Source: Massalongia carnosa
Lineage: Eukaryota
Assembly (NCBI GenBank): GCA_965645245.1
Contig: OZ287075.1
Location: 558,001-622,000 of the forward strand
DNA: 64,000 nt
Direction of reading: 5' to 3'
Part shown: positions 5,433-33,887 of the stretch, in pieces
Layout of the letters: each line of letters opens with the position of its first letter
Numbering within the stretch: the stretch's first letter is position 1
The notes under the pieces: generated by a model
The model's database searches: none
Told to the model about the DNA's origin: nothing
What the model saw: only the letters and a program-made list of their open reading frames with translations
Translations under genes and position numbers: made by a program

Positions 5433-5782
5433 TTTCCTACATCAGTTCGTAGGCAAATCCGGTCGTGTTCGGATTTTGCATGGCAAGGAATGAAAGCATA
5501 AGATATTGATACTTCAGGATACTTTGTAAACACACGTGACTGACATACTTCGGAGGGAACGGCCCGTGATTTGACACATTTTCTTACATCACTTGGATAT
5601 GTCGACCTCTCAACCGGGCGTGGCTATAACCAACAGAAATGACGTTTTTAGTCACGTGTTCCAGCAGAAATCAACCCCGCCGAATGTATGAGTTCTAACT
5701 ATAATCCCGACCGTGCCACTTTCTTCTCTGTCATTCTTACACAGATCGCAGACCGAGTTTTCTCTCGGAACCGGCATTGGCA

Positions 5783-12919: not shown

Positions 12920-13145
12920 GTCTATGACTATGGCTATATGACTATGTAAAGATAGGGGCCTGTATGACCATGATGTTAAGGATGCAGAGTTGCTACGGAG
13001 TGCAGAGCAATCTGTTCCTTTTATCTTGGTCACCTCTGCTAAGCGAGATGATAATAGTTTATCCGAGCCTCTATGCGATTAGATTAGATCTTATCTTATC
13101 TAATCTATAGGCTAAGCAATGCTGGTAGAAGTTGAACATTCAACA
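12910..13145 (-). repeat. Copia 3' LTR (236 bp)
   Basis: TGTTGAA...TTCAACA termini; adjacent to the PPT; homologous to 18712-18998. Confidence 0.9.
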
Positions 13146-16100
13146 CCCTCCCTCAAGTTCTGCCAGTACTTGTTCTGATGATCAAAACCGCGCCGCGCGG
13201 TGTGAACTCAACTAGATGAATTCATGTGAAGTTGTCTGATGAAGAGAAGACTTTGACGTGGGTAAGCGGCTTGGTCAGTCCGTCCGCTACCATGTGTTCT
13301 GTTGAAACATAGGTAAGGTCTATTCGACCCTCTGTGACCTCATTCCGTATGAAGTGATGCTGAATGTCGATGTGCTTAGTCCTTGAATGTAAGACGGGAT
13401 TATTGGCTAGTGCTATAGCACTCTGATTATCACCTTTCAATGCTATAGCGCCTTCCCTTTCAAGTACATTCACTGTCGGAGTAGCATCATCCTGCATCAG
13501 GCCGAGTTCTGTCATCAATAAGCGTATCCATATGGTCTCCTTAGCAGCTAAGGTGAGTGCCATATATTCGGCTTCTGTGGATGAGAGGGCAACGGTTTTC
13601 TGTCTTTTTGAGGCCCAACTGATTGGTCCATTGTTCAGCATGAAGACGTATCCGGAGGTGGACTTGCGGTCTTCCTTGTCACCGGCCCAATCAGAATCGG
13701 AATAGCCCTGATAGACAAATCTCCGCCACCAAAGGTAATGCCTCTGTCTCTGGTTGCACTGAGATATCTGAGAATCTGCTTGGCTGCCTCCATGTGTGAT
13801 TTGCCAGGATTTTTGGCATGTCGGCTGACCACTGAGGTCGCGTAGGCAATGTCAGGCCTTGTTTCTATCATAGCAAACATGATGGAGCCGACGATTGCTT
13901 GATACTGTTTAATGTCTGATTCTGAGGCCTGGGATTCATTTCTGAATAGACTGCCTTCTTTCATTGGGGTGGTGGTAGTTTTCGCGTTCTGCATATGAAA
14001 CTTCTCCAGGACCTTTTCGATGTAGGTAGATTGAGATAGTTTGATTGTTCTGTTATCGCGATTTCGTTCTACCTTTAGGCCTAGATAATGACTGATTGAG
14101 CCCATGTCCACCATCTTGAACGCAATGTTCAGTTGTTTCTTGACTTCAGATATCATAGGAGATCCCTTTGGACCTATGATGTTCAGATCATCAACGAAGG
14201 AGGTAACAATTGGACCTCTTATTCCTGCCGAAGAGGAGAAGATACTATGATCTGCGTGAAGTTTGGACAGACCCAGCTTGGTAAGTAGAAATTCGGATAG
14301 CCTTTCATACCATAGGCGTGGAGATTGTTTCAGGCCATAGAGAGCCTTGTTCAGTTTGCAGATCATGCCCGCTTTTTCATATCCTTTGGGCATTTGGACG
14401 TAAATCAATTGATCTATTACCCCATACAAGAATGCTGTGACGACATCAAGCTGTTCGATGTCCAAGTCATGATGAGCTGCTATGGCAAACAATAATCGGA
14501 AGGCCATTGGTTTCACTACGGAGGCATAGGTCTGTTCGAAATCTACTCCGTACTGCTGGAGATAGCCTTTCACCACCCATCTGGATTTGTACCGTGTGAT
14601 ATTTCCATTGACGTCTCGTTTCAGTTTGTATACCCATTTTCCACTGAGAGCAGTATGATTGGGCTCCATATCCTCGGTTCTGACAAGAGTCCATGTTTCG
14701 TTCTCGAGAAGACTGTTGTGTTCATTGTCCATGGAACGACTCCAGCTTTCTGAATGTGGACCTTTCATAGCTTGATGGTATGTCTGAGGTTCAGCTATGT
14801 CGAGTTGAGACAGTGCGTCATAGTCTTCCAATCCTGATGATCCTTCCTTTTCCAAGGTTCTGGCAAGAAGAACGAGTGGATCCTCTGTGTCTATGTCATC
14901 GTATGTAGGAGTATGATTGAGTTCATCTAAAGCTGTGTCTGATAGAAGAGACAATGCGTGTTCTATCTGAGCATGCTTTCTGGGTCTGCCACGTCCACGT
15001 TTTGGAATCGTTGTGGGGGATGAAATGACTGTTGATTTTGATGGAGTGACTGTATCGGGAGTCATGATGACCTCGTATGTAGGAACGTTGGTCTGGTCTT
15101 TGGAGATGGCGTCTTCGTGAATGCGCAGATCTTTGACCCTGATGACCCTGTAGTCCTTTTCCAGAAAGACTCGATAGATCGTGCATCCATCGTACCCACA
15201 CAAGACTCCACGTTGGGCCCGAGGTAGAAATTTGGCCGATTTGCTGTTGGCACCTTTGCGTTCTTCCTCATGAATGAGGACATACACGGTTGATCCCAAC
15301 ACTCGCAGATGATTCAGAGGAGGTGACTTTGACTCGTAAATTTCAAATAGGGTCTTTCCGGATAAAGCATTTGTAGGTCTGACGTTTTTTGTGTGAACCA
15401 TAGCTAAAACCACCTCTGTCCATAGGTAGTCCGGAATGCCTCCTGCAATGATGGTACATCTAGTCATGTCCATGATAGTTCTGCCTGTTCATTCAGACAC
15501 ACCGTTTTGTTCCTGTGAATACGGTGCGGAGGGTTCAAACGTTATCCCTTCTTTCAGGAACCAATCATCCGATTTCAGACTTCGAAGTTCTGTGCCGAAA
15601 TCAGTTCGAAAGATGTTTATTGGCTTGCTCTTTCCTGTCTTGTTCTGAGCTAGACTGTAGTATGTCAACAGATGGTCAAACCATTCGCTCTTCTTGATGC
15701 CTGTATACACATGAGTGTATCTGCTGGCATCGTAGGTGAAGGTAAAGAAGTACTGTTCTTCAAGAAGTCCTGCTGGTTTGATGGGTCCTACTAGATCGGA
15801 ATGAACCTTTTGAAAGATGCCTGTTGCTCTCTCCTGAGGTGTCCGGTTGTATATCTTAGTGGCCTTTCCGAGTTCACAGGATGAACAGTACCAATCTTTG
15901 TTCACGTTGTCTGAGTACGACACATCGAGTCTTTTCAGAAAAGCTCGGCAGGTAATCAGGTTTAAATGACCAAGGCGCGCATGCCATGTTAACAGGTCTG
16001 TTATGGCTGACGTGTGGTAGACTGATGTGTTCGGCCACTGAAAGGTGCTCTCATCTGTCTGCATAAGATGTGTAGCCACGTCTGGGGCGTCCAAGGTCTT

Positions 16101-17839
16101 TAGTACAAAGGTTGTATTGACTCTTGGCACATAGCCTATGATGTTCTGACTGATCCCGTTGAATAGGGTCCAGTTAACATTGTCATAGTAGATGTTGTTT
16201 TGGTTGAGTAGTGCCAGACTGACGAGGTTCACTGGACACTGGAATGAAAAGAGCGTTGATCAGTATTAATACTGACGAGGGTGAGTCGTCCTGTAGTGCC
16301 AACGTTTTCCGGATCATTCCCCTCCCTGGAGACGTGCCATCTGATGTAGATCCTGCCAGACCTGTGGAGCGTGTTATGTAATTGATGAACGACGGCCTGT
16401 GATTGCATACGTGCATGTCCGCTGCGCTGTCTAGTAGCCAGGTGTCTCTGTTGAGATGGTTGATGGTCATGACCTTCTGTAGAGTGGTAGTCATGACTAC
16501 TGTGAGTCAACTGCTCACTGTAGGAGTTGTAGTGACTGTGGTGTCTGGAGTTGACGTGGTGACTTCTGGCTTGGAGTTCTTTTGTCTCTTGACCCTCCCT
16601 AATTCAGCCGTGTCTCCTCTCGCCCGTTTTAGATGGGGGAATTTCTGGAAACACTCATCTGACCAATGTCGTGTTCTGTTCCTATTTACACACTCTGGAA
16701 CGGTGCGGCTTCCGATAGGTGCTCTACCTCTGTTGGAAGCGCCAGTGTGAAAAGCCTTGACAGTTAGGTTTCGTGCATAGGCTATGAGGATTTTTGTTGT
16801 TTCCGAAAGGTTTGTGGTGTCGTGCGTCCAGTCCCTGCGGAGTTGTGCAATGAGCGGGTCATACTTGTCTGTGCAGTTACCAAGCAGCATTCCCTGCAGT
16901 ACAAACTCTATGGAGTCGACGTTCACCTTGACCTCTTCGATCAACATGTCCTTGATCTGATTGAAGGCACCGTCATACTCTGAACAGTATTGACTGACTG
17001 TGTTGAAGTCTCTCATCTTTTTCGTACTAACCCTCAAGATGACATCCGTGATGCTCATTGGTGCCACGTCCTGGAATCTATTCTTCAGAATGGCCCACAT
17101 CTCGGCAGCGGTCTTGTTATTGATGAGGTTGTAGTGACATGGTGCAACCAGTCCATGGATGATTCCAATAGCCTTGGTCATCTCGGTTTTCTGTCTGTTC
17201 TTATCATCCCGAAGTTCTTTGACGAGGATGCTGGTAGTAAGACTGGCCGGAGTAAACCCTGATACGATGAGGCTCTCTCTGATGGAGTCCAATGAGATCT
17301 CTGGTTGGGTTTCCAGAATGGCTGTGTCACAGTTATTCTTCAGCAGAATACCTCTGGTGTAACTAGCCCATGCTGAGTAGTGTTCCGAGTTCTCTAGAAG
17401 GTGAGGCTTCTCTGTGGAACTGTTGATTTCAGGAAGAGACATGATGAAGTCAGATGAAGAAGAGGTCTCTAGTAAACTTCTGTAGACTGAAAGGTATATA
17501 AATTTCTGAGATTGGTGCAGGAGTAGGATGTGCACTGGAATGAATGGAGGAGATGGGAATATGTGATCTAGTTATAGACAAAACATTTCCCTTCCTTTGT
17601 CATCAAACTGTGATGTTCCTTTCTTTGCCACAACGCTTGTACCCTCATGAAAGAACTCTCTTCAGATGGTGGAACTTTCACTTGGTGGTGTGGAGATAGG
17701 GGCTGTCGGAACCACGGGCCTGTTAAATGGAATAAGGTTTTTTCCGGATTCCGAATTTCCGATTGAGGCGTTCTGCTTAATTGAAGTCTGATTACTCCAT
17801 CTGTATACGCGTAGACTAGTCAGAAAGTCTGCTAATGAA

Positions 17840-18278
17840 TGATGCAGCAAGGATCAAACCTTGGAACTGAATTTCCGAAGTCTGTCTCTGGATCAAAGTA
17901 TGTTGAGTGGTGATGCAGCAAAAGTCAGAATGAAGTCTGCCCTTGGGTCAACGTCAGTTAATTGATGATTCAGCAGAAATCAGAGTTTCATGAGTGGTCA
18001 AGGCCGCGCTGCGCGGTTTTTGAACAAAACTCAGTGAAAAGGTCTGTTCCTAGGTCAAAGTCAAATGAATGATGATGCAGCAGAGGTCACTCATTGGAAC
18101 TGGTCCACTGGAGTCTGTCTCTGGGTCAATGTCAAATGAGTGATGATGCAGCAGAGGTCAAACCTTGGAGCTAGTCCACTGGAGTCTGCCTCTGGGTCAA
18201 AAGTCAAATGGATGGTGATGCAGCAGAGGTTAAACAATGGAATTGGTCCACTAGAGTCTGCCTCTGGGTCAACGTCAT
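17840..18278 (-). repeat. About 72-bp degenerate tandem repeats in the Copia 5' leader
   Basis: The motif GAGTCTGYCTCTGGGTCAA...TGATGCAGCAGAGGT recurs at about 72-bp spacing (18110, 18181, 18253), with decayed copies to the left. Confidence 0.75.
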
Positions 18279-18711
18279 CCTCCGGAGTGCCTCTCAGATA
18301 TTCGGGCATGAGAGCATTCTGATGGTCTGATATGAAGAGAATGTCTTCTGATGCTTGTAGTCTGGCAAAGAGCCTCTCTGCTTATGATGTAGATGATTTC
18401 AATGCTCTTTCTGATAACCCTTTGTAGGTAGGGAACGCTGGATCAGGTGACGTTCTTGTTAAACGTCTCTATCTGATTGAGAGGTTGTCATGATGTGCTT
18501 TCACGAAGCTGTTCAACTAGCTAGACTTGCGGGTGCGAATCCCGCCTGATTCAGGTCTGTAAACAAGTAGAGATTTAGTCTTTGCATTGTCCGTCTAGTT
18601 CTTTTCGAGAAAGGATAATGATGCTCAGCTAATGATTTTGCATCGTGATGCTGCGGATAAGAATTGCTTCGATTCCTGTATGATCGATAGCGCCCTTCCG
18701 GGCTCATAACC

Positions 18712-18998
18712 TGTTGAATAAGTCTATGACTATGGCTATATGACTATGTAAAGATAGGACCTGTATGACCATGATGTTAAGGATGCAGAGTTGCTACGAG
18801 CAATCTGTTCCTTTTATCTTGGTCACCTCTGCTAAGCGAGTGATTTCCGAGCCTAGGTTGCTTAATCCGCCACTAAGAGGGATTAAGTAACCGATGCGGC
18901 TAGACTAGATATGATCTTATCTAATCTATAGTCTAACCCTATCTGGTTCACTCACAGTTTCCATTGGTGCTCTGCTGGTAGAAGTTGAACATTCAACA
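18712..18998 (-). repeat. Copia 5' LTR (287 bp)
   Basis: TGTTGAA...TTCAACA termini; adjacent to the PBS. Confidence 0.9.
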
Positions 18999-19023
18999 TA
19001 AATTCACGAGTTTTGATATTTAT

Positions 19024-19194
19024 TGTAACGGTTCGACAATGCGTGGTGCGGACGGCAGGACCTACAGCGAACATAGCAGGAGTCCCAGTTATAGTAGAAT
19101 AGAGCTTGGTCTGCGGACTAAGTATTGTGCCTTTTGGTCGGGAAGGACAGGTGGCGCAATGGTAGAAATCTATTCACTATCTCGCTTCGTCACA
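19024..19194. mobile_element. Solo LTR (171 bp)
   Basis: TGTAACG...CGTCACA termini with a perfect 5-bp TSD TTTAT (19019-19023, 19195-19199). Confidence 0.75.
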
Positions 19195-19226
19195 TTTATT
19201 AATGTCAATTATATAAACAAATCTAT

Positions 19227-19702
19227 TGTAACGTCAGCGCAACGTCTTTAGGGTCAGTAAAGGTGGGCAATCAAGTATGAGCTGGGTTAGGCTTATCTGG
19301 AATATCACTTCTGGGTTACTGATTGTCAGATGATGAGGCCACCATCAATATAGGCATCCATCGTGAGCCCCGGGAGGTGCCTGGCAAATTGCCAGAACAA
19401 GCAGATATGGGAGCCTAGGTCTGACCGTCAGGGTGCCTAAACAAGCAGATATAGTGGGACAAGGTCTGACCGATAAGACTCCTAGATGTGACTGTTTTGT
19501 GACTGCTATATAAAGCAGACAAATAGCCCACATAGATAATTACCTTCAATGACAATCATGCTATAGCACCTACACGTGAATCTACCGTTCATTACTGATG
19601 AGTTAACTGCGAGGAATCTAGCTGAAGGGAAGATAGGCTTCCTTATATACATGATGGGTGATGAGTACTCTAGTACGGGTCGCTCTCCTGCATGGTCCCT
19701 GA
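19227..19702. mobile_element. Partial LTR-like segment cut by the AcademH-like element
   Basis: Starts TGTAACGTCAGC, has an internal direct repeat of about 44 bp (AACAAGCAGATAT...GGTCTGACCG) and a TATATAAAG. A matching inverted end GCTGACGTTTCA lies at 30308-30319. No TSD. Confidence 0.45.
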
Positions 19703-19840
19703 TTGCCTCAGTACCTCAGACGTGCGTGGCTCAATGAGCCGGCTAAGCCCCTCCGGGTTAGCCTATTTTCGCTAAGCCCCTTCGGGTTAGCGTCGCTGCT
19801 GACTAACATCAGTGCGATAGCACGTCTGAGCGCAAAACTC
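19703..19840 (+). repeat. Left terminal inverted repeat
   Basis: TTGCCTCAGTACCTCAGACGTGCGTGGCTC...GGGTTAGCG...GCACGTCTGAGCGCAAAACTC; reverse complement of 29896-30037. Confidence 0.92.
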
Positions 19841-20134
19841 AAAATTACGGCCAGATCCGCGTAATAAAAATTTTAACAGTGCAACCATTCCTTCTATGAC
19901 CCTTATCGGTGCCGTTACCTTCGCTTGCGCTGGGGGGGCTTTTAATTGGATGAATTGATTTGAATGCTTGAATTTGATTGGGCATGGGAACGACACAGGT
20001 CAGCCCGGGCAGGCCTAGGCACGTGACTCGGGGTCGGTGCTGAGGTGAGAACCTCATCTTCTAGGCCCGAGGCGTCTGCTGACGCTCAACGATCCGATAG
20101 ATGATGCCCGACGGCAGTGCCCGACGGCGATGAT

Positions 20135-21298
20135 CTAGATGGAGGTGCCCGGCGGCGCTCCGGATCGATGCCCTGGTTGACCTGTACGCCCAATGGGATG
20201 CCCAATTGAGTAGGGGTAGGAGTTTGTAGGATTCGTCTCGGCGACGACAGCACGTGGGACTGCTAGAGGGATGCCTTTTTGAAAACTGAGGTTCAAATTG
20301 AATAGTGAGGCCTGGGACGTCTGAAAGTATAGCTGAAACGCGTTTGATGACCATCTTCCGAGTCTCTGAATACTCTCATCCAGCATCCCGTGGTCGGCGG
20401 CGTGTTGTGCTGCTCCTTTTCTGAAGCTGTGTCCCGAGTATGCCGAGTCGTTGATGCCGACGGCTATCAGTCTCTTTTTCAGGGATGCTATGACGGAGGC
20501 TCTGGTGAATGCGGTGCCGAGACGAAAAAGCGGGGATGTAGATGGCTGAGGATCATTTCTGAAAAGACGCCGTAGTGCTGTCACGGGGCAAGTGCTCTCA
20601 TTGGTCGCTGCCAGCACTATCTGAACTCCTGAGTGATTTGTGTCTGTTTTGCTTCTTTTGAGACGTAATGTCGCGTATTGATCGTTCTCGGCGAATGAGA
20701 TGTCACCTCGTGTAGGTTTCAATCTCTGAAAAGATGTCTTCTTACGATCAGCGACAGTGTAGGTGATTTCCCCGAGTCTGAGGAACCCTGCCCATGCAAC
20801 TTTGAATGTCGCGTCGATGTTGAGGTCTTCGGCCGAATGAGCGGGAATACTGGTGATTTTTGTCAGTAATTCTTTTGAAATGGGTAGGCGTCTTCTTTTT
20901 GTCTGAGAAAAGATCCTTTTTCCCCCTTTCAGCATCAATTGAAGTCTCGGCCCCTCGAATGGGGTGAGGCCGTATCCTCGGTCTACATGGTATGATCTGA
21001 GGCCGGCGAGGTAGCTCGCTGCCGTCTCTGGTTTTATCTTTCCCTGCTTGGGTGTGCCGCCCCCGTATAGTCGACCGGCTAGCCATTCCTCGAGGGACTC
21101 GGTTGTTGCAGGCCACGACGTGCGTCCCGTCGTCGCGCAGAATGCCTCGTATGAGTCGATCGCCGTCCCGTACCCTTTTCTCGTGTCCGCCGAGTGTCCG
21201 TGCCAGACGAGACGTTTTACCAGGGCTGACCCTGGTGTGGAGGATAGGTAGGTGGAGGGAGGTTCATCGAATTGTATGGGTTCTGCCAATGAGGGCAA
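20135..21298 (-). CDS. Tyrosine recombinase of the YR retrotransposon
   Basis: Catalytic residues R (FLRLGE), K (LKRSKTD), HxxR (GHSFRKGAA), W (LGRW) and Y (AFQLY). N-terminal core-binding-like region (SYLAGLRSYH). No ATG at the 5' end of the ORF. Confidence 0.92.
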   Translation of the reverse strand: MPSLAEPIQFDEPPSTYLSSTPGSALVKRLVWHGHSADTRKGYGTAIDSYEAFCATTGRTSWPATTESLEEWLAGRLYGGGTPKQGKIKPETAASYLAGLRSYHVDRGYGLTPFEGPRLQLMLKGGKRIFSQTKRRRLPISKELLTKITSIPAHSAEDLNIDATFKVAWAGFLRLGEITYTVADRKKTSFQRLKPTRGDISFAENDQYATLRLKRSKTDTNHSGVQIVLAATNESTCPVTALRRLFRNDPQPSTSPLFRLGTAFTRASVIASLKKRLIAVGINDSAYSGHSFRKGAAQHAADHGMLDESIQRLGRWSSNAFQLYFQTSQASLFNLNLSFQKGIPLAVPRAVVAETNPTNSYPYSIGHPIGRTGQPGHRSGAPPGTSI

Positions 21299-22920
21299 AA
21301 GTTAGCCAATCTTTCATCATCAAAACGTGACAGGGCATCTGCTAGTCCATTGGAAGTGCCACTGATCCATTGACAACGTAGTACGATGTCCCACTTTGCA
21401 GCTATGGACAGTATTTCTCGTAGAGGCGCGTTGGCCGGTCCCTTGAGGGTTAGATTCGTGAATCCTGTGTATGCTGTGTTGCTGTCGGTAAAGACAAGGA
21501 TCTGTCGATGTCGCCATGTCGGCGCCCATTTCTGAAGGATTAGAAGGATAGCTTCGACTTCTCGGACGTTTATGCTCGGTGATCCTTCCTGATTGAGGAC
21601 TAGGACTCGGGCCCTACATGCGTTTTTTTGATTCACGAGCTCGTTGTCTTGTTGAAAATAGCCTCCGAGACCCGTGAGGCATGCATCCGTATGCACCTTG
21701 ATCGTGTCTCGTGTTGACGTCTCGAAGAAGACAATACCGTTGAAGTCCACTAGAAGTTTGTTCCACCAGATGAGATCCTGTCTGACCCATGTGGGAATTC
21801 TTCTTTTGACCCGACGATGACTGCCCGAGGGAAATGAGGCTATAAAATTCCAGAATAATCGTAAGAAGACTCGGCCCAATTTGACTGCCTGTGCGCAGAA
21901 GCTTAGGAAGCCCGCTATTGACTGCATGTCGCCGAGGCTGATTGTCGTCTCGTTTAGTGCCTTTGTAGTGATGATTCTCGCTTTTTCCAGCTTGTCCGCT
22001 GGCAGACGAATAAGACTGTTGATGGTGTCGACCTCGAGTCCGAAGACTGTCGCTGTCGTTCCCTCGGCGTCTTTTGAGTCGTTTCTCGGGATGCCAAGAA
22101 TGTCGGTGAGAATGTTGTAGGCTTTTGTTTCTTGGTGCAATCGTTCTGACGATGTCTCGGATGGGAAAATTGCAACGAAGTCGTCTAGATAGTGATGTAA
22201 TCTCCATTGTAGAAAGGATTCCAAAATCCAATGAAAGCCTTCCGCAAAAAGATTGAAGATGAACGGGGCCGTCGACAGTCCGAACGAAAGGCATGTCTCG
22301 GTGTAGAATTCGTCATTCCATCCGAAACCCAGAAGCCATTGATGATGAGGTGCGACGGGAACGTTTCGAAAGGCGTCTTTGACGTCTCTTTTCACTATGA
22401 CAGCACCTTTGCCCGCTGACAGAATCAATTGAATAATGTCGTCGAGTCTGGCGTATTGTAATTTGGATGCCTCTTCTGGAATGTTGTCGTTGACTGATGT
22501 TTGATTGGGATGAGACAGATGATGAATGCGTCGCCATCCTCCGTCATGTTTCGGGACCAAGCCGAGGGGGGAGGCCACAAATGGCTGACTCGGGGCGGCT
22601 ATTCGTCTGACTCGGCCCTTCCTGAGGTCCTCTTGGAGCTTATTCTCGATCGTTTCCGGGTCCTCATTCGCTGATGTCAGATTTTTTTCGATCCGAAGGA
22701 TGTCTGTGGGGCCTTCGTATCCGATTTGTACTCCGAAACGAAGGATCATGGGCAGATGGACTCGGAGGGGGCCCGGATACTCTTGAAGTAGAGTTGCCCA
22801 TGCGGACGGTACGAGGGGAGATGGGCTGTCTTTCAAACGCTGACGAGATGCGTCTACGAGTTGAAACGAAGGGATTGTATTTGGTCTGATTGGTGCAGGT
22901 AAGCAGGGATGGGACGTCAT
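21217..22920 (-). CDS. Reverse transcriptase / RNase H of the YR retrotransposon
   Basis: SPLGLVPK..WRRIHHLS, DVKDAFRNVPV, LSFGLSTAP, HYLDDF. RNase H motifs TDAC, EVEAI, TDS, NGLADALSR. Confidence 0.93.
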   Translation of the reverse strand: MTSHPCLPAPIRPNTIPSFQLVDASRQRLKDSPSPLVPSAWATLLQEYPGPLRVHLPMILRFGVQIGYEGPTDILRIEKNLTSANEDPETIENKLQEDLRKGRVRRIAAPSQPFVASPLGLVPKHDGGWRRIHHLSHPNQTSVNDNIPEEASKLQYARLDDIIQLILSAGKGAVIVKRDVKDAFRNVPVAPHHQWLLGFGWNDEFYTETCLSFGLSTAPFIFNLFAEGFHWILESFLQWRLHHYLDDFVAIFPSETSSERLHQETKAYNILTDILGIPRNDSKDAEGTTATVFGLEVDTINSLIRLPADKLEKARIITTKALNETTISLGDMQSIAGFLSFCAQAVKLGRVFLRLFWNFIASFPSGSHRRVKRRIPTWVRQDLIWWNKLLVDFNGIVFFETSTRDTIKVHTDACLTGLGGYFQQDNELVNQKNACRARVLVLNQEGSPSINVREVEAILLILQKWAPTWRHRQILVFTDSNTAYTGFTNLTLKGPANAPLREILSIAAKWDIVLRCQWISGTSNGLADALSRFDDERLANFCPHWQNPYNSMNLPPPTYPPHQGQPW

Positions 22921-22965
22921 GAATTCAGCTATTGAAGCTATTCTACTGCCTCCTGCACCAACCCC

Positions 22966-23979
22966 CTATTTCTTCGTTGGGCATGTCTTCTGGCCATGCC
23001 CAGCCGCGCCGCACGATTTACATTTGTGCTGTCGGTAGCACGACGGCCAGGTGCAGGTGCCGCTGTTGTACTTGTCGCAGATTTCCCCCGCTGCCTTCTC
23101 GGCCCTATCGGCCCTGTCTCCTCTCGGGGTCGGTCGCCGGGACGGCGGGGATCGTGAGCGGCGACGGCGTAGGACTGTGAGGGGGGTGCAGAATCGAGCT
23201 TGGAATTCGTCGGGCATTTTCCATTGGGATGCGTCGGATGGCTGAGACGCGATGATGTGAGTGTGGGTTTCGATGGCGAGGGGGAGGACTGCTTCCTGCC
23301 ACTCGTACACCTTGGCCAGCGTGAGGATTTTTCCGTGGAATGCCGACATGGTGGCGTGAAGCTGTTGACTCGATTTCCCGAAAAGACTGACCATGATCGA
23401 GGTGTAGTTGATGAAGCTCTCGGTCCAGACGTCATGAACTGTCTTTCCGAAATCTTTGTAGGTCCCGGATGCCTTTCTCAACCTCAAGGCGCCGTCTTCG
23501 ATGCCGATGCGGTCCTGATCCTTGTAGGACTCGTATTGCATGCCGTGCATGTGTCGGAGGCGGGAGAGGTTGATGGCTTTGAATTTATTTGAAAAGATCT
23601 TGATGATCTCGTCCTGTGGTAGGCCCGCGAAACGGGGTGCTATACTTCTTACTTCGAGAGGGATCTCACCTAGGTCCTCGTCGTCATCGCCGACGACACG
23701 ACTCGGCTTGCCAGCAGGAATGACGGCCGCTATTCGGGCGTCAGATTCTCGGCGCATGCAGTCGATTTCTAGCTGCATTTTTTCCACCTCCTTCTCGGCG
23801 ACCAATGCCTTGGACTCGGCAATTCTGGCCTCAGCCTCGGCCGCCTTCGCTTCTGCCTCGGCTTTCTTCTTTTGTAGGGCGAAGATTTGATTGGACTGGG
23901 CCTGCGTCAATCCGACAATCTCCTGGGAGTCGGGGACTATGTCGTCCATCGGGGTGCTTTGGGAACGGGTGTTCGTCAT
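22966..23979 (-). CDS. Gag-like ORF1 with coiled coil and C-terminal Cys/His zinc fingers
   Basis: Coiled coil KKAEAEAKAAEAEARIAE; C-terminal CDKYNSGTCTWPSCYRQHKCKSCGAAGHGQKTC; located upstream of the RT ORF. Confidence 0.8.
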   Translation of the reverse strand: MTNTRSQSTPMDDIVPDSQEIVGLTQAQSNQIFALQKKKAEAEAKAAEAEARIAESKALVAEKEVEKMQLEIDCMRRESDARIAAVIPAGKPSRVVGDDDEDLGEIPLEVRSIAPRFAGLPQDEIIKIFSNKFKAINLSRLRHMHGMQYESYKDQDRIGIEDGALRLRKASGTYKDFGKTVHDVWTESFINYTSIMVSLFGKSSQQLHATMSAFHGKILTLAKVYEWQEAVLPLAIETHTHIIASQPSDASQWKMPDEFQARFCTPLTVLRRRRSRSPPSRRPTPRGDRADRAEKAAGEICDKYNSGTCTWPSCYRQHKCKSCGAAGHGQKTCPTKK

Positions 23980-23986
23980 TGGGAAA

Positions 23987-24125
23987 AAGCACCGACAGCG
24001 AGGTAGGGGCACCGAGGACAACGTGAGGTCGACGACGAGTCAGTGAGATGGGAAAAGCAGCAAGCACTGACAGCGAGGTAGGGGCACCGAGACAACGTGG
24101 GGTCGACGACGAGTCAGTGAGATGG
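23987..24125. repeat. Two-copy tandem repeat of about 75 bp in the 5' leader of the YR element
   Basis: AAGCACYGACAGCGAGGTAGGGGCACCGAG...GTCGACGACGAGTCAGTGAGATGG at 23987-24051 and 24062-24125. Confidence 0.85.
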
Positions 24126-24534
24126 ATGAGGCCGAGTGAGAAGAAGTGGATGAGGAAAGAATTTTCAGAGGGTGATTCTTAATTTACTTTGACTCAGGGG
24201 CCTCACGTGACATAGAACCATCTCATTTATGGATTTAATACAATGATTAGGGTCGTATTAGTTTACCAGAGACTGTATTTTATACCAAAAACGCACCTCT
24301 CAAGATGGATGACTCGATAATCATGTGTTATAACTACTGTCAGGCTAAGAAAAGCGATGTGAAAGTCGATTAAGTGATAAATTGTTCGCTTTCGCTCAAT
24401 TTTGAGGTTGATGAACTGATTATTTTCATGTGGCGCGATTACATTGAGTTACAAAGATCATGATGATATGAATAACGACGGCCAATCAATGGTATTGTAT
24501 GATTTATCTAGATTGAAGCTATCTGACGAAAGCC

Positions 24535-27212
24535 ATGGCTCTTGTCGGGGGCCCCTCCTCGCCACTTACCGACCTACGGACAAGTCCCTTGACTCCCGCC
24601 GGTGCGCTCAAGCGGCCCCACCCATCGCCGTCAGGCAGTAATGATAGCTCACCCTCTTCCTCCTCCCCTCCTGCCTTACCTGAAAAAAATGGAGGCGCGA
24701 AACGCCACCGCCGGCGCATATCAGATTACGACAAGCTGGTTGAGGTGCTTAAATTTCTGAGCTCTCTAAATTGGTCGGTAAAAGATTTTTTATCAACACT
24801 TTGTAAGAATCGAGCCCGTCATAGTATGCGAAAGGCGCAAGGCCAGCTCTTCGATTTTGTCTATGTCGATATTGTGCGGCAAGAAGACTTTTCAAGCCTC
24901 ATTAGGCCTAGTAGAATATCCACTATCCTTCGCGAGAGAGGATAGGTTTAGGCCGCGGATGTGCTTCGTGAAGAAATCAAAGCTTTGGCAGATCACGCAG
25001 CCTTTGGCCCTTTCCAGCCGCCCTCTGCGACAGTCGAGTTTGGGACCTTGGAGGCTATTAAACTTGCTGCATCTGCCGCCAAGCAGTTGGCGCCACGATG
25101 GCTTGAGCTAATTGATAGTGTTTGTCGCGAGGCTCGCCCGCAGGAACCTCTCGATGTGACGTTGGATTCTCCCAGCGGCCGGCACACCGTTATATTGGCA
25201 ATGCTTTGTCACAAATTGCGACCAAATAAGGCGACCAATATTCAGTCCGTCTTAGGCCTTTATATTTATCAAGGTGGGGCGAGGCGGCGAGTTCTAGATA
25301 CACTCTGTCATTTTGACCTGACGATGTCATATACTACCCTGCAGCGGCGCATGTTGTCCTTGATTAAGGAGGCCGAACGAAAGGTTCAGATGCTAGGACA
25401 AGGCTCAAACATGATCTTGACATACGATAACTTTGACTTCGCAGAAGGTAAACGAGGAGAGCGCACGGGGGATAATAGAGACTCAGATCAATCACTACCG
25501 CTCTAATTTTCCAGGGGCAAGGATTCGATGCCGGCGCTTTGAGGCAGGATATGTGGCGCCCCGCCACGCATCTTTTATCAGCTGAAAGAATTGCGCGAAA
25601 GCTGGAGACTGGTGATCTCGAGATGCAGGTGAGTTCAATACAGGACGAGGTGTATATACCGCGCTCAATCGCTAATGCACCGCGTACCTAGATTCGTCTT
25701 CATCATCTAGAGTCAGCGATTCGAGCGCTTTATGGCCCAGAGATCGGCGACGTTCAACTTCCTTGGTCGACTGCAATGCCCGTGCTGAATAAGATGAAAA
25801 AATACAAGACCAATTACATTCCTATCAAACCAGTCATGAAGGATGAGAGCACAACATCTAATAATATTCAAATATTGGAGGATATATTTGTGCGACAGTT
25901 CAAGTTCAAGGAGGATGACTCGACATTTGCGAGCGTCATTCGGCTTATCTATGGTGACCTCAAGACATGGTCGAGAATGCAATCTGTCAAGGAATTACGT
26001 CGTGGGATATCGGAGCAATCTTTCGATCGGTTCGACTGGATTTTACCGGGATTAGGGTTATGGCATCTTCGCTTTAACATGCTGCAGCTTATTCATAAAA
26101 TACATTGGGGAGAGGCCCAGCCGGTTGATCCTTCGACTCTTCAATATGCCGCCGATCGGTGGGGCCGCGCTCGTGTCGTGCAGCCGAACGATTTCCAGGC
26201 CTTAGAGGATCTGATCATTCAGAGCTATCAAGCTAGAATCGTTGGGACGTGGATTAGGTTTTTACGAAAGGATGGATATGCTCCGCAGCGAATCGAAGCA
26301 ACTATTTCGTGGCTCACAGCGCAGACTTGCGGGCAGGATGGCACCTGGATGAATATGTTGGGCAGGATATCTCGCAAACTTCACGCGGAATTACCCTCAA
26401 CGTCAATAGATATGCTTCCTCCAACGCTTGATCAACAATTTCAGAATCATCAGAACTTCTGTGATCACGTTGAATCGTATCTAACACTTCGATACGCAAT
26501 CAAATATGCGGATATTGGACTACTTCGTCACGCATTGCGCCACGCAACGGTGATCTTTCAGGCAAGCGTAGCTGGCACCCCGAAATATGCGCAAGCTCTT
26601 CTATACACCCTTCATGCGATTGATTCTTCCGCAGCGACCATAAGGCTACAGGAAAGTATTTTAATGAATAGTCTTGTCAATTTACGCGGTGACGAAGAGT
26701 CGAGTTTTGAGACTGATCGGCTTTTAGAGATACTAAATAATAACCTCAAGACGTTCCAGCACGAGCGATCTTATTTTTCAAAGTATAGTGACACCTTGCT
26801 CGAGGACTGGGCACTCAACGGTCCATATCTTATGAAGCTCAAAGAAATCGTTGAGTTTTACTTTGGAAGAGTCAACTCTTCAAGGCATCCAGCAAAATCG
26901 GCCGCAGAGGATGTGTGGGGCATGGCTACGGCACTAGCGCATAAATCACTCTGTAAAAGAAGCTATGATCGATTTTCAACTAATCCAACAGCTAATCTTT
27001 ATGTTGAGGGATTGAAGAAACTTGGAGAAAATGTATTAAAATACAATCAGCAGTATCTTTCCGAAGAAATTTCAAAAGAAATTTCAACAGACGACCTTGA
27101 GGGTAAGTATGAAGCCGAGCCCGATTTTGTCAATGAAACAAAGCAGGTCCCCGACAGCCCTGTCATTTCAATGGCCCGTCTCGAGATATCCGGCGGTATG
27201 TTTTTTGATTAA
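24535..27212 (+). pseudogene. Academ-type (DUF6589-like) transposase, disrupted
   Basis: Motifs TYDNFDF, YGDLKT, LPGLGLWHLRFN, AIKYADIG, TPKYA, LVNLRG, ETDRLLEILN. Intron 25629-25691. Two TAG codons at 24943-24951 and a 1-nt frameshift near 25483. Confidence 0.8.
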
Positions 27213-27271
27213 ATCATCGATACCACGAGATAGCCTAGTCATGTAAATCCGCGCCGCGCGGCTTTACAGAG

Positions 27272-29447
27272 TCAGAGGTAGCGGACGGGGCACTTTCTTT
27301 CTTGTCTAGATCGTGTCGGAGGAAGGGCCATGGGTACATTCAGCGACAACGCTTCCATAGGATCTCGAGGCGCTTTTTTGGTCTTTGATGCCTTCATCGA
27401 TGATTTAAGAGCATCAACATTGTCAACAACGAGCGCCGCATCGGAGATATTGTGATTAGGCGCAGGATTCTCGCCCGATGGCTCCGTGCTCTCGCTTTCC
27501 TTCGAGACTTTCTTCTTGACCGCATTTCGCTTTTTAAAAACCTTTCTCGACATATATCCTTGTTTGATCATCCAGTTTTTCCTCCGTTCCTCAAATTCAA
27601 TACTGGCGGAGTTGCATGTTAGGCTGGGTAATCGTTTTCTCTTTATGTCGTTGTGTCGTTTCCATTCCTCGAACATGTCTCCCTCGTCTAATCTCATTGC
27701 TTGACCCCGCTTTAAAATTTCTAAAAGCTCGGCGCCGTAGGGCCTAATACCAGTCCATGTGTTACCAATCCATCGCCGCATGGTGGGCTCGTCCACAATC
27801 TGATCCGCCCAAGTGGTCAAAGAATTCAGTACCTCATCGGGCATTATCAATGATGGGAAGTATCGCATATGTGAATTTGGGAACTTTTCCTGCGCCTTGG
27901 CCTCCCTCCATTCTCGAAGTTTAAGGGTGAACCAAGGCCGCCTAGACGAGTCACGCTCGGCCGTTCTATTTAACATCTCATTGGCGGCTGTTGATGTCTG
28001 AAAACTTGGATCGCAAATTGAACAGCAAGGTTGCGGCTTAACATAGGCCGACGTTGGATACACTTTATCATTGAAGAAATTCAAGCCAATACCTCGAACG
28101 CAACCATCTGAAGGCACATTGATTATCTCCCAAAGACCCGGTGGCATATCTCGTCGCCGATCAGCATCCTTTTGATTGATGCGGCGTTTACTGGCCTTGG
28201 ATTCAATCTCGATTCCCGCGTCATATCCGTCCTGTTCGTCCATTTTTGATCCGCTTCTTGGACCCATGCACCAAGAAGGATGCAAAAGAGTAAAATGCGC
28301 CTGTCCTCGACCGCAACGCAAAGCACGACCTAAACGTTGGTATAGCTTCGCCATTGACGAGGGTAGCAGCCATTGCGTAACTCTCATAACGTCTGGATTA
28401 TCAATACCAAGCCCGTATGCATCCGTTGCGATCAGGATTCGAGGAAATTTACATTGATTCGAGGGCATTTCGAAGCGAGCCGCAATCCTTTCTTTGTCTT
28501 GGGTGGCCATGTCGGAAAAGAAAGGCGCGACCCAACTAGCAGCCTCAATTGGATAGGACAATTGATTCATCCATACTTTCATTAGCGCACACGCCTTTTT
28601 GATAGATGAAATTGAATCCATGAAGATAATCGTTTTCGGAATATCAAAAGGACTCTCAGCCCGTGTTGGTAAAAGATGTTGAAGATCGATCATGCTGTTC
28701 ATAGGCCGCTGTAGACTGCTTGTCTGTATGTATATCTCTGGACGATCAAGCGCTGTTTGAATAACAGTACTTTCGTTATCAAAGCCACAGCGATCTTTAA
28801 CGCTCTCTAGGGTTCTTGGATCCAGCGTTGCAGACGCACCCAGAAAAGGAATACCATCTGGTAATCGTGTACGAAGCACACCGAGATTGAAGTATTCGGG
28901 CCGGAAATCTCGCCATTCGGATACAAGATGCATCTCATCAAGAGCTAAAAGACATAAATTCAAGAAGAAACTTGGATGCCTCAGAACCTCCTGATTAAAC
29001 AGCTTTGACGTCGCTATCTCTGGGCTAGTAAAAACTATTCATATTAACGAGTAAGTTTTTATATTTATCTCAATCATAATTTGAATACACACCATGCGTA
29101 TAATTGTTTTCACGAATTAACTTTAAATTAGAAGAATTATTACTATCACCGTCCAACACGAAAGGCTTGCATCCCTCGATAACGCTCAATTTCTTGCACT
29201 GTTGAGCTTCTAAGGTCTTGAGAGGCATGATAATTAAAGCGATCTTAAGACAAGAGAACATTAATGGCATAGCTTGAAAGATAATACTCTTTCCAAATCC
29301 AGTCTTGGCGATAAATATCAGATCCTTTTGATCTTGTGCTAAAGTCATGATAGCGTCAACTTGCTCATTCTTTGGATAAAAGCCGAATTTACTTAAAATC
29401 ACGGTCGTCACCTGCTCGCGAGTTATCGACGCTATAGGATCGTCCAT
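27272..29447 (-). CDS. RecQ-like SF2 helicase of the AcademH-like element
   Basis: Walker A AKTGFGKS; TSPE after splicing intron 29035-29092; DEMH, SATL, TDAYGLGID, YQRLGRALR; CCSIC zinc motif; HRDC-like C-terminal helices. Confidence 0.9.
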
Positions 29448-29895
29448 TTCGATGTGTTCGCGAGCGATATTCGACGATTCGCGAGTTGGATTCTTAGCCC
29501 GCAAAACGCACATCAAGCAAGTTCATCACATTCAACGATTTTAGGCTTTCGAAAACAACGCTCGGAGGATCAGATTAATGATCAGAAGCGCCGACAATGA
29601 AAAACTGGAGCTAGTGACCCGTTGAGTCTGCTGTGGTGGTGTCGAAATTTCGAGTCAAAGTCGAGTCCTCGTCGCGAGATCGATATTGCGACTCAATTTT
29701 GCATCGATATGTAATTAAAATATTGATTAATCGATAGAATGTATATCAAAGCATCATTTCTATTATTACATAATTTATGAAATGTCGTTGCGCGTTGTTG
29801 ATTCCGCCGTCAACTTGATTCTTGATGATTTTTGAGGTTAAGCCAAAAATTTGTATGAGCGCGCACCAAAATAAGCCGGATCTGACAAAAATACA

Positions 29896-30037
29896 GAGTT
29901 TTGCGCTCAGACGTGCCGCCCGTAGCATGCGTAGTCAGCTAAAGGGCCGCTAACCCGAAGGGGCTTAGCGAAAATAGGCTAACCCGGAGGGGCTTAGCCG
30001 GCTCATAGAGCCACGCACGTCTGAGGTACTGAGGCAA
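29896..30037 (-). repeat. Right terminal inverted repeat
   Basis: GAGTTTTGCGCTCAGACGTGC...CGCTAACCCGAAGGGGCTTAGC...CTGAGGTACTGAGGCAA. Confidence 0.92.
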
Positions 30038-30965
30038 CAACTTTGCTCTTCTTTTTGTGATAACTGATCAACCGTTCTTTAACAAAACACTAGGCTAGGC
30101 CTAACATTATAAGTCGATAGGAAGAAAAGAAGACAATGAAAAAGAAATCAGGAGTCAGCCGAGGAAATCTTAACCCCATGACAAGGGAATAAGTATTGAG
30201 AGCCAAGATTTCACTGATGAATAAGATGACCACGTTGAGAAGATCATGGAAACTTAAGAGCAAGGAGTTAAGCAAGTAGCTGAATTAGTTGGTTAACTTT
30301 CAACGATGCTGACGTTTCAGTAGCAGCGTTTCATGTATCATCGATGAGACATATTATAGATATAACAGGATCGAAGGACAACAAGACAAACTTGATTATT
30401 GGTGATTCTCTTTTTTTTTCCCCTAGGAAAAGAGGGTCGTAGCTCATCAGCGCTATGTTCTCGACCATCATTGGCATCCTTTTTGCCCATCACCGTTGCA
30501 ACTCTATCTGTCACCCATCATTAGTGCTATACTTGGAGCTATTGCTTTCATGTTCTTGATCATGACCTCGCTTTACTGTTTTTCTCAATTATTAAAACCT
30601 GCCTTGGCCTACGATTTAGTTATGCCGCTTCTCTTCCGGTTATTTTGGCTGTTGCTGGCTATTTCTCTACAACCCCCATATTCTTTCGCAGGATTTAGCT
30701 GCACCTGATTGTTAAATAACGCCATTGCCATTGCGTTTCTCAAAATCATGCATCACACCTCTGTCACACAGATATCCCTCTAACCTTATTAGTTGTTAGC
30801 CCGCCATTTTTCTTTTGTCTTCATCGATTATAGTTGTGTTGGTTTCATTTACCTTCTGCTCTTTATCCTGGTTCTGCAATTAAGCGAGAGTTTTCATGGA
30901 GGGTAAGGCAGAGAACAGGGAGAAAGAAATTTAATATATTATTATTATTAAATTCATACTCGTTG

Positions 30966-31197
30966 TGTTGAATATCCAACTCCTATCAGTACAATGAACA
31001 TAGCATCTAGGAAACCGTAGAAGCCGCTTTAGGCCTAAGTTAGTCCCAAGATAAGATAAAGATCACCTCACTTAACAGAAGGTGACCAGTAATAGGATAA
31101 AGACTGCTGAACAGCACTCTTCATCCTTAACATCACGGTTATACATACACTTATTATTACATAGTCATATAGCCATAGTCATATACCTATTTCAACA
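30966..31197 (+). mobile_element. Solo LTR related to the Copia LTRs, in opposite orientation
   Basis: TGTTGAA...TTCAACA termini and perfect TSD CGTTG (30961-30965, 31198-31202). Contains the reverse complement of ATGACTATGGCTATATGACTATGTA and GATGTTAAGGATG from the Copia LTRs. Confidence 0.88.
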
Positions 31198-32912
31198 CGT
31201 TGTGACATCAGCTACAGCCGACCCATGCGAGAAAAGCTATCAAAGTTTCAAAGAAGGAAAACCCTCATCGAGGGGAAAAAAACCTTCATCTATATACCTA
31301 CACGTGATCGCTCGACCTCACTTCGCGAATGCTACGTTTCGCCAGCGCCACGTCTACGACACACATGCAAATTTAATATATTAATGCGACGATAATAGAT
31401 ATAATGCGAGGTTGTGAGTAAAAGGGTCATTTTTTGAAGGATATGAGAGTATTTTGCTGCGTTCTCATTTCTTCTATTTATCAGCGACTTGCTCAGTTGT
31501 CGCCCTGTCGCCCACTTTTTGTTTTTACCAACCACCTGGTTTTGAATTAATTAGACTGCCACCGCCTATTTTTGGCTTTTATTTCTTGGTCATTGATTTC
31601 TCGCGCCGCCTGATTTTGATTCCGACAGTCTGTTTTTTGTTCATTTTTGGCCTTATTGCCGCCTTGTTCTAGTCATCTATGACTACACACCGTCTCTACT
31701 TCCGTTTTGCCTCCCTCCCATCGCCGCCTTGGTTTCCAGTTGCCACCGTCTTGGTTTCGATTTACCGTTACCTAACTCTTGATTGTTTCCAGTTGGTGCC
31801 ACTTGATTCTCGGCATTCGTCTATCTTCTTCCTGCCTCAATCGTCTCTACTTGTTGTTCCATTAAATCGTTGTCTTTATAGCTGGAGCTGCAAGAATGAA
31901 CGATAGTTGAGTAATGAGGATGAGGATAAGGGGTGAATCAGATGAGGGTAAGAGTTTAAACCTAAATAGAGAGGTATAACTGTAGTGCGGAGAATAACAT
32001 GAACTAATAGATAGGAAGATTTTCATCAAGGACGGTTTTTATGATCAGAATGGAATCATAAGTAGTGAAAATGAAGGCACGGAGATGGGACTATAATAAG
32101 TTTTTGATTTAATCGTACTATCTTATATTCAATCTAACCCATTTCATTCCTATAAATGGGTTACCTAGCCTCTAGCGCAAAAATCGCAGTACCGATCCCC
32201 TCCCCCCCCCCCTCAAGGCCAGCCGGCCCTCCTGTTGCTAGGTTTTTATGGACAGAAGAGGCTTTACCAACGCCGAGTTCTAGAGAGGGTGAATGAGAAA
32301 AATCGAGCAAGGGATAGCAGTACGCAAATTCAAAATTACTAGCGGCCCTTAAGCCTCTCTATCTTGAATTGGCTTACAGGTGATTTTTCTCGCAGCTCAT
32401 TAGGGTAGCATTGAATGAAGGGTGAAGCTGACAGGTCCTCCTGCTTTCACCGCTTATCATAACCCCCATTTTGTTCTCATACGTCACAGGCGCTTTGGGT
32501 GCTCCAAGTCTTGTCCTACTTTGTTTCTCCATACATCGCTCTTCATCTTAGGGACAGGAAGACCAGTAACCGGGGGATGGAGGATTGGGAAGATAGTAGG
32601 ATAAGAGGTATGGTGAACTTAGATACAGAGGTGAAACGTAGTGAAGACAGGTTTTTAAATTTGTACACAAAAATGTGTAGTGAAGTTTTGGCAGAATCTA
32701 AGATAGCTGAAATTCATTGTATTTCAATACGACTATATTAAAAAGAAAGGTTTCTAAGAGGGAAACCTAGACAATTTATATATCATCGTCAAGGTCGCGC
32801 CGGGGTTCACAGCTCTGAACAATAATTATAGGACTGTTTGACCGGTGATAAAAAAAAACGAAACGAAAAGAGATTATTGCGATTTAATGGTTGGCCAGGC
32901 ATTTGTGTATAT

Positions 32913-33232
32913 TGTTATGCTAAACCGCGAATTTGTTCATCATAAACTTCATTCTCCAACGTCCTTGGGCATATGCTCTAGCTAGGCCGGACAACGATAG
33001 AATGTACTTGCCTCGAAAGGGTGGCGTCCTACGTACAGGTTAGGAGTATATAACCAGTCAAGGAATGAATATGATAGATCTAAACTAAACACTAGATGAT
33101 TAGCCCATGTTGATTAATCCCGATTTGGGGAAGTCTATACTGTGACTATGCAATTGGAGAGGCAGGCTGATGAAGTATAGAATAGAAGTTGAGGCACCAG
33201 GAGTTCGCCTCATACAAAAATTGAACGTAACA
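32913..33232. mobile_element. Possible solo LTR
   Basis: TGTTATG...CGTAACA termini and an internal TATATAA. Flanks do not form a TSD. Confidence 0.3.
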
Positions 33233-33414
33233 TGAGAGAATCACGAACAAGCTTGAGGATTTTGCCTCAAGTTTCTCTACACCCTAATGCTTAGTCAAGT
33301 CACGAAATGTTGATAAAGAGCTGAAGTGTTGAAAGGGGAAATTCTCAAGCGAAAGCGATTGCGTGTTGCAGACTCCTTTAGACTGGGAACGCCGTCGTGT
33401 GTGCAGTATGCATG

Positions 33415-33887
33415 ATGATGATGATGATTGATTCTTGTACCGATCTGACACCGGCCGAAGGCCGGCCCATGCGGGCTATCTACTTATTCTTACAGGGAAA
33501 ACCTTTTAAAGGGATAAAAACCATGCAGACTGCGCCATTATCCCAAACGTGTTCCGTTTCTGGACTGCATTCTTCGCTCGATGTTCTGTGAAATCCTTGA
33601 CAAAATGAGAGTTATCGCTCGTATAACAGTTGCGATACTAGTGAAAATTGGGTCAGCAAATTTGCTTTTATTATCCATGTGGTTAGTTTTTTCAACATTT
33701 TCGACGAGCTCATGATCGTTCGATAGTCGTTGGTGCCTATTTGTTTTAGCACTTCGTATCTGCCGTCGATTAGCCTGCAATGTAGAATAATGTGTTTGGC
33801 TGTCTGCTTCTGCCATCCGCACGAGCAGGCCGGGGTCATAACGCCCGGTACCCGACGATTGAACAGGAGTTTGCCAAGCCTATTTTT
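33415..33887 (-). mobile_element. 5'-truncated Tad1-like LINE with (ATC)n tail
   Basis: ORF2 C-terminal zinc knuckle LFNRRVPG..CSCG..QTAKHIILHC...QFSL. (ATC)n tail at 33412-33428. Perfect 13-bp TSD TGCAGTATGCATG at 33402-33414 and 33888-33900. Confidence 0.85.

Follow-up and report, generated by a model that had tools for sequence, protein, structure and literature searches.

When one mobile element lies whole inside another, the arrangement can be read either as a nesting or as a composite in which the outer element transports the inner one. This question is raised by positions 19703-30037 of a 64,000-nt stretch of the Massalongia carnosa genome (GenBank assembly GCA_965645245.1, contig OZ287075.1, positions 558,001-622,000), which we call the window and in whose numbering all positions are given. 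Here terminal inverted repeats (TIRs) enclose five genes, described in a first-pass annotation as a tyrosine recombinase (YR), a reverse transcriptase with RNase H (RT-RNase H) and a gag gene on the minus strand, followed by a convergent DUF6589-type transposase and a RecQ-like helicase. Open reading frames (ORFs), Pfam matches and a repeat search confirmed this arrangement. We consider a single nested insertion to be the best account of the locus, with a probability of roughly 0.8. According to this account, an Ngaro-like retroelement from a separate family inserted into one defective copy of an AcademH-like DNA transposon of about 6.0 kb.

To judge the matter we used public sequencing runs. 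A search for 20200-30190 returned 19 rows from 17 studies with all or part of this stretch, and no RNA data set was among the runs listed for it. The Logan contigs of four runs (X1, X3, X5 and X6) were placed on positions 16000-34000 of the window. Copy numbers were read from ratios of contig depth, which is only a proxy for copy number.

The first-pass annotation had proposed counting transposon copies with and without the insert and comparing the flanks of the retroelement. Contig 3 of X1 (1080 nt) begins with 17 letters that match only 19866-19882 in the window, with one mismatch, and then runs straight from 24216 to 25278. It thus joins 19882 to 24216 and skips exactly 4333 bp, which makes the majority form of the transposon in X1 one without the insert. 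The depth of the contig that carries this empty junction is 5687, against 162 for the unique flank, and the contig is unbranched across the junction, so the filled form must be rare in X1. In the same run the unique right flank has depths of 162.3 and 162.8 (contigs 7 and 8), the transposon body 5687-5925 (contigs 3-6, about 35 times unique) and the retroelement 10721 (contig 2, about 66 times unique). Similar proportions are seen in X3, where unique DNA has a depth of 4.1, the transposon 113-120 and the retroelement 211-272. Each family is therefore present at high copy number independently of the other, with roughly 35 copies of the transposon and 66 of the retroelement estimated from contig depth. 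A protein collection contains 72 distinct DUF6589 and 59 distinct RT sequences at at least 90% identity, which agrees in kind with the estimates from depth; the listed members are on contigs of which the longest measure 0.58-3.77 Mb.

The retroelement also borders on other sequence. Contig 28 of X6 leaves it at 24225 and continues into 84 unlike letters. An internally deleted, non-coding derivative of about 490 bp retains both ends (19883-20192 joined to 24050-24225), and its joint has a depth of 3060 in X1 (about 19 times unique) and recurs in X6. The preference of the first-pass annotation for nesting is upheld by these data, in that most transposon copies have the empty junction and the retroelement forms a family of its own, more numerous, with ends that lead into other sequence. 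The window copy differs from the majority transposon by 10 substitutions and one indel over 4695 nt of body in four X1 contigs, and from the X1 retroelement by one substitution in 695 nt. Both families are young and probably active. The features of the locus are collected in the table.

Table. Features of the transposon and its insert (window positions).
Feature	Position	Strand	Evidence or remark
Left TIR	19703..19859	+	Repeat search, BLAST, alignment; tip 5'-TTGCCTCAG
Subterminal transposon DNA left of insert	19860..19882	+	17 loose letters of X1 contig 3 equal 19866-19882, one mismatch
Left AACCAT (6-bp direct repeat or crossover microhomology)	19883..19888	.	Sequence
YR retrotransposon, 4333 bp	19889..24221	-	Ends uncertain (up to about 6 bp): 19883-19893 and 24215-24225
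YR ORF, 387 amino acids	20135..21298	-	Profile, catalytic residues; overlaps RT ORF by 82 nt in another frame
RT-RNase H ORF, 567 amino acids	21217..22920	-	RVT_1 E 2e-12; RT_RNaseH E 1.6e-4
gag-like ORF	22966..23979	-	From ATG at 23979, full ORF to 24021; coiled N-part, zinc knuckle
Two tandem copies of 74-75-bp unit	23987..24125	.	Retroelement 5' untranslated region; repeat search
Right AACCAT	24216..24221	.	Sequence
DUF6589 DDE-type transposase gene, broken in this copy	24535..27212	+	Pfam, homologue alignment, contig depth
RecQ-like helicase gene (superfamily 2)	27272..29516	-	Pfam, PDB matches, motifs
Right TIR	29877..30037	-	Repeat search, BLAST, alignment

The TIRs had been put at about 140 bp. 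The inverted repeats are real, and BLAST and alignment give them a length of 157-161 bp. The repeat search located outer arms of 95 nt (19703-19797 and 29943-30037, 97% complementary) and a second block of 40 nt (19820-19859 and 29877-29916, 83%), which BLAST of the region against the window joined into one alignment of 164 columns (19703-19859 with 30037-29877; 85.4%, E 6e-46). The same comparison detected no further TIR copy elsewhere in the 64 kb. Neither TIR has been damaged, and over the outermost 30 nt the two are the same. The boundaries are also marked by contigs from other copies, which stop exactly at 19703 and 30037, and by one X5 contig that crosses into the element at precisely position 19703. 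In X1, two joints whose depth is close to that of unique DNA lead out of the element at 30037, one to 30966 and the other to 31161 with five other letters between; we read these as further transposon copies within copies of a neighbouring long terminal repeat (LTR) family. Within each TIR are two palindromes of about 21 nt that resemble hairpins (GCTAAGCCCC..GGGTTAGC type), and about 120 nt inward the terminal TCAGACGTGC motif recurs in inverted orientation. The palindromes and motif copies are candidate binding sites for the transposase.

A scan of public metagenome contigs with a 21-mer from the TIR tip gave nine loci (L001-L009) that represent four distinct places. They share the terminal 26 nt exactly, and in three of them (L003, L004 and L006) the similarity extends up to about 100 nt at 74-79%. 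None of the nine has a second TIR tip within 10 kb (allowing up to four mismatches) or a tblastn match to any of eight ORFs of the element. BLAST of the TIR region of four representatives against their own loci found no partner arm, the only inverted match being one of 21 nt in L006 (E 9e-4). These loci are solitary remnants and have no bearing on the choice between nesting and a composite. Repeat-induced point mutation was also considered and dropped: every part of more than 700 nt has normal dinucleotide indices, and odd ratios occur only in the 157- and 161-nt TIRs, which are too short to judge.

The transposase gene is represented by three consecutive ORF pieces that are colinear with longer homologues. 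The piece at 24535-24945 aligns with homologue P0019 (E 1e-11), that at 24961-25506 with the 753-residue homologue P0061 (E 7e-18) and includes the TYDNFD / WDNFE motif, and the longest, 25776-27212 on the plus strand, matches Pfam DUF6589 (E 8.5e-62). Three or four lesions disrupt the gene. It has TAG codons at 24943 and 24949 and lacks 1 bp after 25482; a further TAG at 25689 may fall within a 42-nt intron. At the deletion an extra G is present in all the contig depth of X1, X3 and X5, the three of the four runs that cover the site. As the deletion is seen in none of these three, the broken copy in the window is a rare variant. The earlier observation that the transposase has stops and the YR ORFs are clean is borne out by the TAG codons and the deletion on one side, and by three uninterrupted retroelement ORFs on the other.

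When searched alone by sequence, the DUF6589 ORF had no significant match in the PDB. A fold was predicted for P0061 together with 48 relatives (predicted local distance difference test 72, predicted template-modelling score 0.73), and the first 200 residues were poorly modelled. In a Foldseek search with this model, Hermes was the only transposase ranked in the top 12 rows, and only weakly (best E 2.6e-3). In a second structural look with VIA, rows 1-11 of the 50 shown were all DDE transposases, with Z scores of 9.7 for the P element (281 residues aligned, root-mean-square deviation 5.4), 6.9-8.4 for Hermes, 7.1-7.5 for ISCth4 and 5.1 for Transib, and the first unrelated row followed at 4.5. 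The model makes it very probable that DUF6589 is a DDE transposase with an RNase-H fold and a helical insertion domain. Conservation points to the D of TYDNFD, D61 in YGDLKT and E312 in FETD as candidate catalytic residues.

The helicase is read from two ORFs on the minus strand, 27272-28963 and 29070-29516, in which Pfam recognizes Helicase_C and DEAD as the two halves of the enzyme. Among PDB entries RecQ and WRN match it best (E 5e-16), and it carries a TGFGKS motif I and DEMH..SEWRDFRPEY. Removal of a 58-nt GT..AG interval (29092-29035) would leave an uninterrupted frame of 728 codons, which suggests a splice at this position.

As in AcademH, a TIR-bounded class II element carries a transposase gene and a separate superfamily 2 helicase gene with DEAD and Helicase_C halves, and AcademH likewise occurs in fungi, including Ascomycota. 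Judged from its sequence, the transposon works like AcademH. The family names AcademH and DIRS/Ngaro used in the first-pass annotation are right as descriptions of how the two elements work and tentative as memberships: the window copy of the transposon has no 9-10 bp target duplication, and the retroelement lacks the defining terminal repeats. By fold the DUF6589 homologue is closest to the P element and hAT (Hermes) transposases, and a literature search found no text tying DUF6589 to Academ. A target-site duplication of 9 or 10 bp is given for AcademH in a passage of one account (PMC10045372), which the window copy does not have. AcademH-type elements in fungi are called 'low-copy' in part of another account (PMC10799480), whereas about 35 near-identical copies are estimated here.

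The retroelement encodes a gag-like protein, RT-RNase H and YR. The gag-like ORF has a C-terminal CX2CX4HX4C zinc knuckle and no Pfam match. The only Pfam matches that define domains of the polymerase are RVT_1 and RT_RNaseH, and no methyltransferase domain was found in the retroelement. The window YR protein alone gives only a Phage_integrase match at E 0.005 in Pfam and no significant PDB match by sequence search; among cluster representatives its relatives number more than 10,000 (E 0.001 or better). A profile built from 38 of its relatives had 17 PDB matches at E 0.01 or better, all of them Cre or Tre, with Cre as the best (5.2e-13), and 26 of the 38 match Phage_integrase (PF00589). K217, W316 and Y324 never vary in the alignment of these relatives, and R174, H290 and R293 hardly do. 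The protein thus has all catalytic residues of the Cre type, R-K-H-R-(H/W)-Y.

For the RT, 358 relatives were found at E 0.001 or better. The best 120 listed are 42-61% identical, apart from a 100% representative of the window protein's own cluster, and the named ones among the matches listed come from Talaromyces, Penicillium and Aspergillus fischeri (44% identity). The exact RT protein of the window is present on eight contigs of the protein collection. When the RT profile was compared with viral contigs, 92 stretches fitted the pattern and none encodes a relative.

By gene content the retroelement is Ngaro-like: gag, RT-RNase H and YR ORFs stand in that order without a methyltransferase, the YR ORF overlaps pol, and the element is fungal (Dikarya). 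Ngaro elements are described mainly from Basidiomycota in passages of two accounts (PMC3783388; PMC13465315), and the only ascomycete with an Ngaro remnant in the 2013 survey by Muszewska et al. is A. fischeri (PMC3783388), the species of the RT relative at 44% identity. Here, in contrast, an intact family of about 66 copies inhabits an ascomycete. A further difference from Ngaro is that split direct repeats (A1...B1-A2-B2) were not found by BLAST with 8-nt words in 19700-25800, where only the two copies of the 75-bp tandem repeat appeared. Aligned locally, the 5' and 3' untranslated regions score 17-23, no better than shuffled sequence (mean 17.1, maximum 27). The retroelement shares with DIRS1-like elements a YR gene and a presumed circular intermediate, but long inverted terminal repeats, an internal complementary region and a methyltransferase domain are all missing from it; the only inverted match at its ends is 7 nt long.

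The retroelement sits in the non-coding stretch that separates the left TIR from the transposase gene and interrupts neither of them. The YR element had been said to start about 100 bp inside the left TIR. In fact the insert starts at 19883-19893, which is 24-34 bp inward of the inner edge of the TIR and 180-190 bp from its tip. Contig 25 of X6 starts at 19893, and contigs of both X5 and X6 leave the retroelement at 24225. If the retroelement is taken as 19889-24221, its joined ends form 7-nt inverted arms around a 7-nt spacer, and the empty target shares with this joined-end site AACCAT and part of the right arm. The inverted match is a modest signal, as one of 7 nt also occurs in 89 of 5000 pairs of 25-mers drawn at random from the window.

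These features suggest a route of integration that most likely passes through a circular DNA copy of the retroelement. The joined ends of the circle would form a small palindromic core site, at which the recombinase would carry out strand exchange with a similar target that also contains AACCAT. A Cre-like crossover with that target would leave AACCAT on both sides of the insert, and the window copy would not have moved since. AACCAT is best read as microhomology with the target and not as a true duplication. The short direct repeats of Cryptons are interpreted in the same way in a passage of PMC13465315. The palindrome of the joined ends resembles a lox site in style, a likeness drawn from sequence only. 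The arms of loxP are 13 bp long, and those of the retroelement (7 nt) are far shorter. The retroelement differs from both Cryptons and Cre/loxP in that it encodes RT, RNase H and gag and hence moves through RNA.

Several observations weigh against a simple nesting. The exact ends of the insert are ambiguous by 4-10 bp between two models, the empty site reading either CTCA or TCCT after AACCAT. Logan contigs lose rare variants, with the consequence that filled junctions cannot be counted directly, and X1 is possibly the sample behind the window assembly, in which case the two are not independent. Beside that of the window a small number of other composite copies may exist, and the 10.3-kb composite could still be moved in trans, both TIRs being intact and no gene being broken by the insert. 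One X5 contig (2193 nt, depth 2.9), which covers 22431-24225, passes from the right end of the retroelement (24225) through seven other letters into the left TIR tip (19703). This adjacency hints that the association with this end of the transposon may not be purely random; it may reflect a tandem or circle-like arrangement, integration next to the TIR, or another subfamily. Another X5 contig leaves the transposon at 24226 and continues into 219 unlike letters. The flanks of the window copy, TGGTCCCTGA and CAACTTTGCT, contain no target-site duplication of 9-10 bp, and the 10 bp outside each TIR have no direct repeat. The insertion history of the window copy itself is accordingly ambiguous as judged from its flanks, and the missing duplication suggests that the present unit may have been reshuffled by recombination between copies.

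This last idea can be stated as an alternative that is compatible with nesting, namely that 19703-30037 is a chimera of two recombined transposon copies whose TIRs come from different insertions. It would explain the missing duplication, and with about 35 near-identical copies there would be no shortage of partners for recombination. The flank on the left consists of highly repeated DNA (positions 19005-19605, just left of the transposon, have a summed contig depth of 119,318 in X1 against 162 for unique DNA) and the one on the right is unique. No breakpoint is visible, however; 10 substitutions and one indel separate the window copy from the four X1 contigs, and the target duplication of the family is not established from any copy here. 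We regard a chimera as doubtful, though it deserves more credence than the remaining alternatives. It is unlikely that the recombinase repeatedly and independently targeted pseudo-attachment sites near the left end of the transposon, producing nestings without co-mobility. Such targeting would account for two junction types in which the retroelement has the same orientation and lies within 190 bp of the left TIR tip (inside it in the window, 7 bp outside it in X5). In X5 and X6 contigs, moreover, similarity to the window runs past AACCAT to CTCA at 24225, as it does in the window itself, which suggests a sequence-specific target. Against this, there are only two observations, one of them at the X5 depth of 2-3, and the empty major form in X1 means that most of the presumed target sites are unoccupied.

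Least probable of all is that transposon and retroelement move as one 10.3-kb piece, present in several copies, with the class I element riding on the class II element. The intact TIRs, the uninterrupted genes around a non-coding insertion point, and about 35 sister copies, of which many seem to have complete transposase ORFs and could supply enzyme in trans, would all permit it. Yet the X1 contig is unbranched across the empty junction at the full depth of the family (5687, against 5851-5925 for the body of the element), the private 1-bp deletion of the window copy is found in none of the three covering runs, no second filled copy is among the joints and loose ends listed, and the window copy has no target duplication. 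A broader scenario, which we consider highly improbable and only slightly less so than a co-mobile unit, combines Cre-like integration at look-alike sites, one of them favoured beside the left TIR, with composites that arise repeatedly and are carried in trans to new places or genomes; the retroelement would then represent a lineage without terminal repeats altogether. If a favoured site beside the left TIR did exist, composites could reach new places or new genomes by means of transposase supplied in trans.

A single nested insertion is thus the reading that we retain. Nested transposons are commonplace, and the principal result leans clearly against the idea that class II carries class I at this locus. 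The locus documents two young, probably active families in a lichen fungus, and the exact pair of empty and filled forms pins the insertion point of the retroelement. It also provides an intact and abundant YR retrotransposon in an ascomycete, one that lacks the terminal repeats thought necessary for its class and whose joined ends are like a miniature lox site. Such ends could make the integration chemistry of the poorly understood YR retroelements testable.

The window is fungal nuclear DNA, with a NACHT-ankyrin NLR gene and genes for CPSF, Ndc80, MCM10 and galactokinase. Among the best matches of the galactokinase, those with names all come from lichen-forming Lecanoromycetes, with Pseudocyphellaria aurata at the top (73%), followed by Heterodermia, Lignoscripta, Letharia and others, which identifies the host, by this protein comparison, as a lichen-forming ascomycete of the Lecanoromycetes. 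Near-identical words of the element occur in runs under 16 organism codes from 17 studies, and one of these is a lichen metagenome. X5 and X6 contain both elements at a depth of 2-3 and nearly none of the window flanks. Runs with the element and without the flanks may reflect the same fungus at trace level, a related species, or transfer between species.

The surroundings of the transposon are rich in other repeats. Immediately to its left, 21 contigs in X1 and 10 in X3 diverge after 19194. Positions 12910-18936 on the minus strand hold a Copia-type LTR retrotransposon (RVT_2, gag-pre-integrase and gag) with LTRs at about 12910-13115 and 18704-18936 that are 92% identical over 143 nt. An inverted, diverged copy (79%) of this LTR family lies at 31062-31205. 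The outer inverted repeat formed by 18704-18844 and 31062-31205 was considered as the boundary of a larger TIR element and rejected; the repeat is part of the LTR family of the adjacent Copia element and has its direct partner at 12910-13052 (92%). The left LTR of the Copia element starts 9 bp before the end of the 1037-residue ankyrin ORF of the NACHT-ankyrin NLR gene (9806-12919), so that this insertion abuts or clips the 3' end of the NLR gene.

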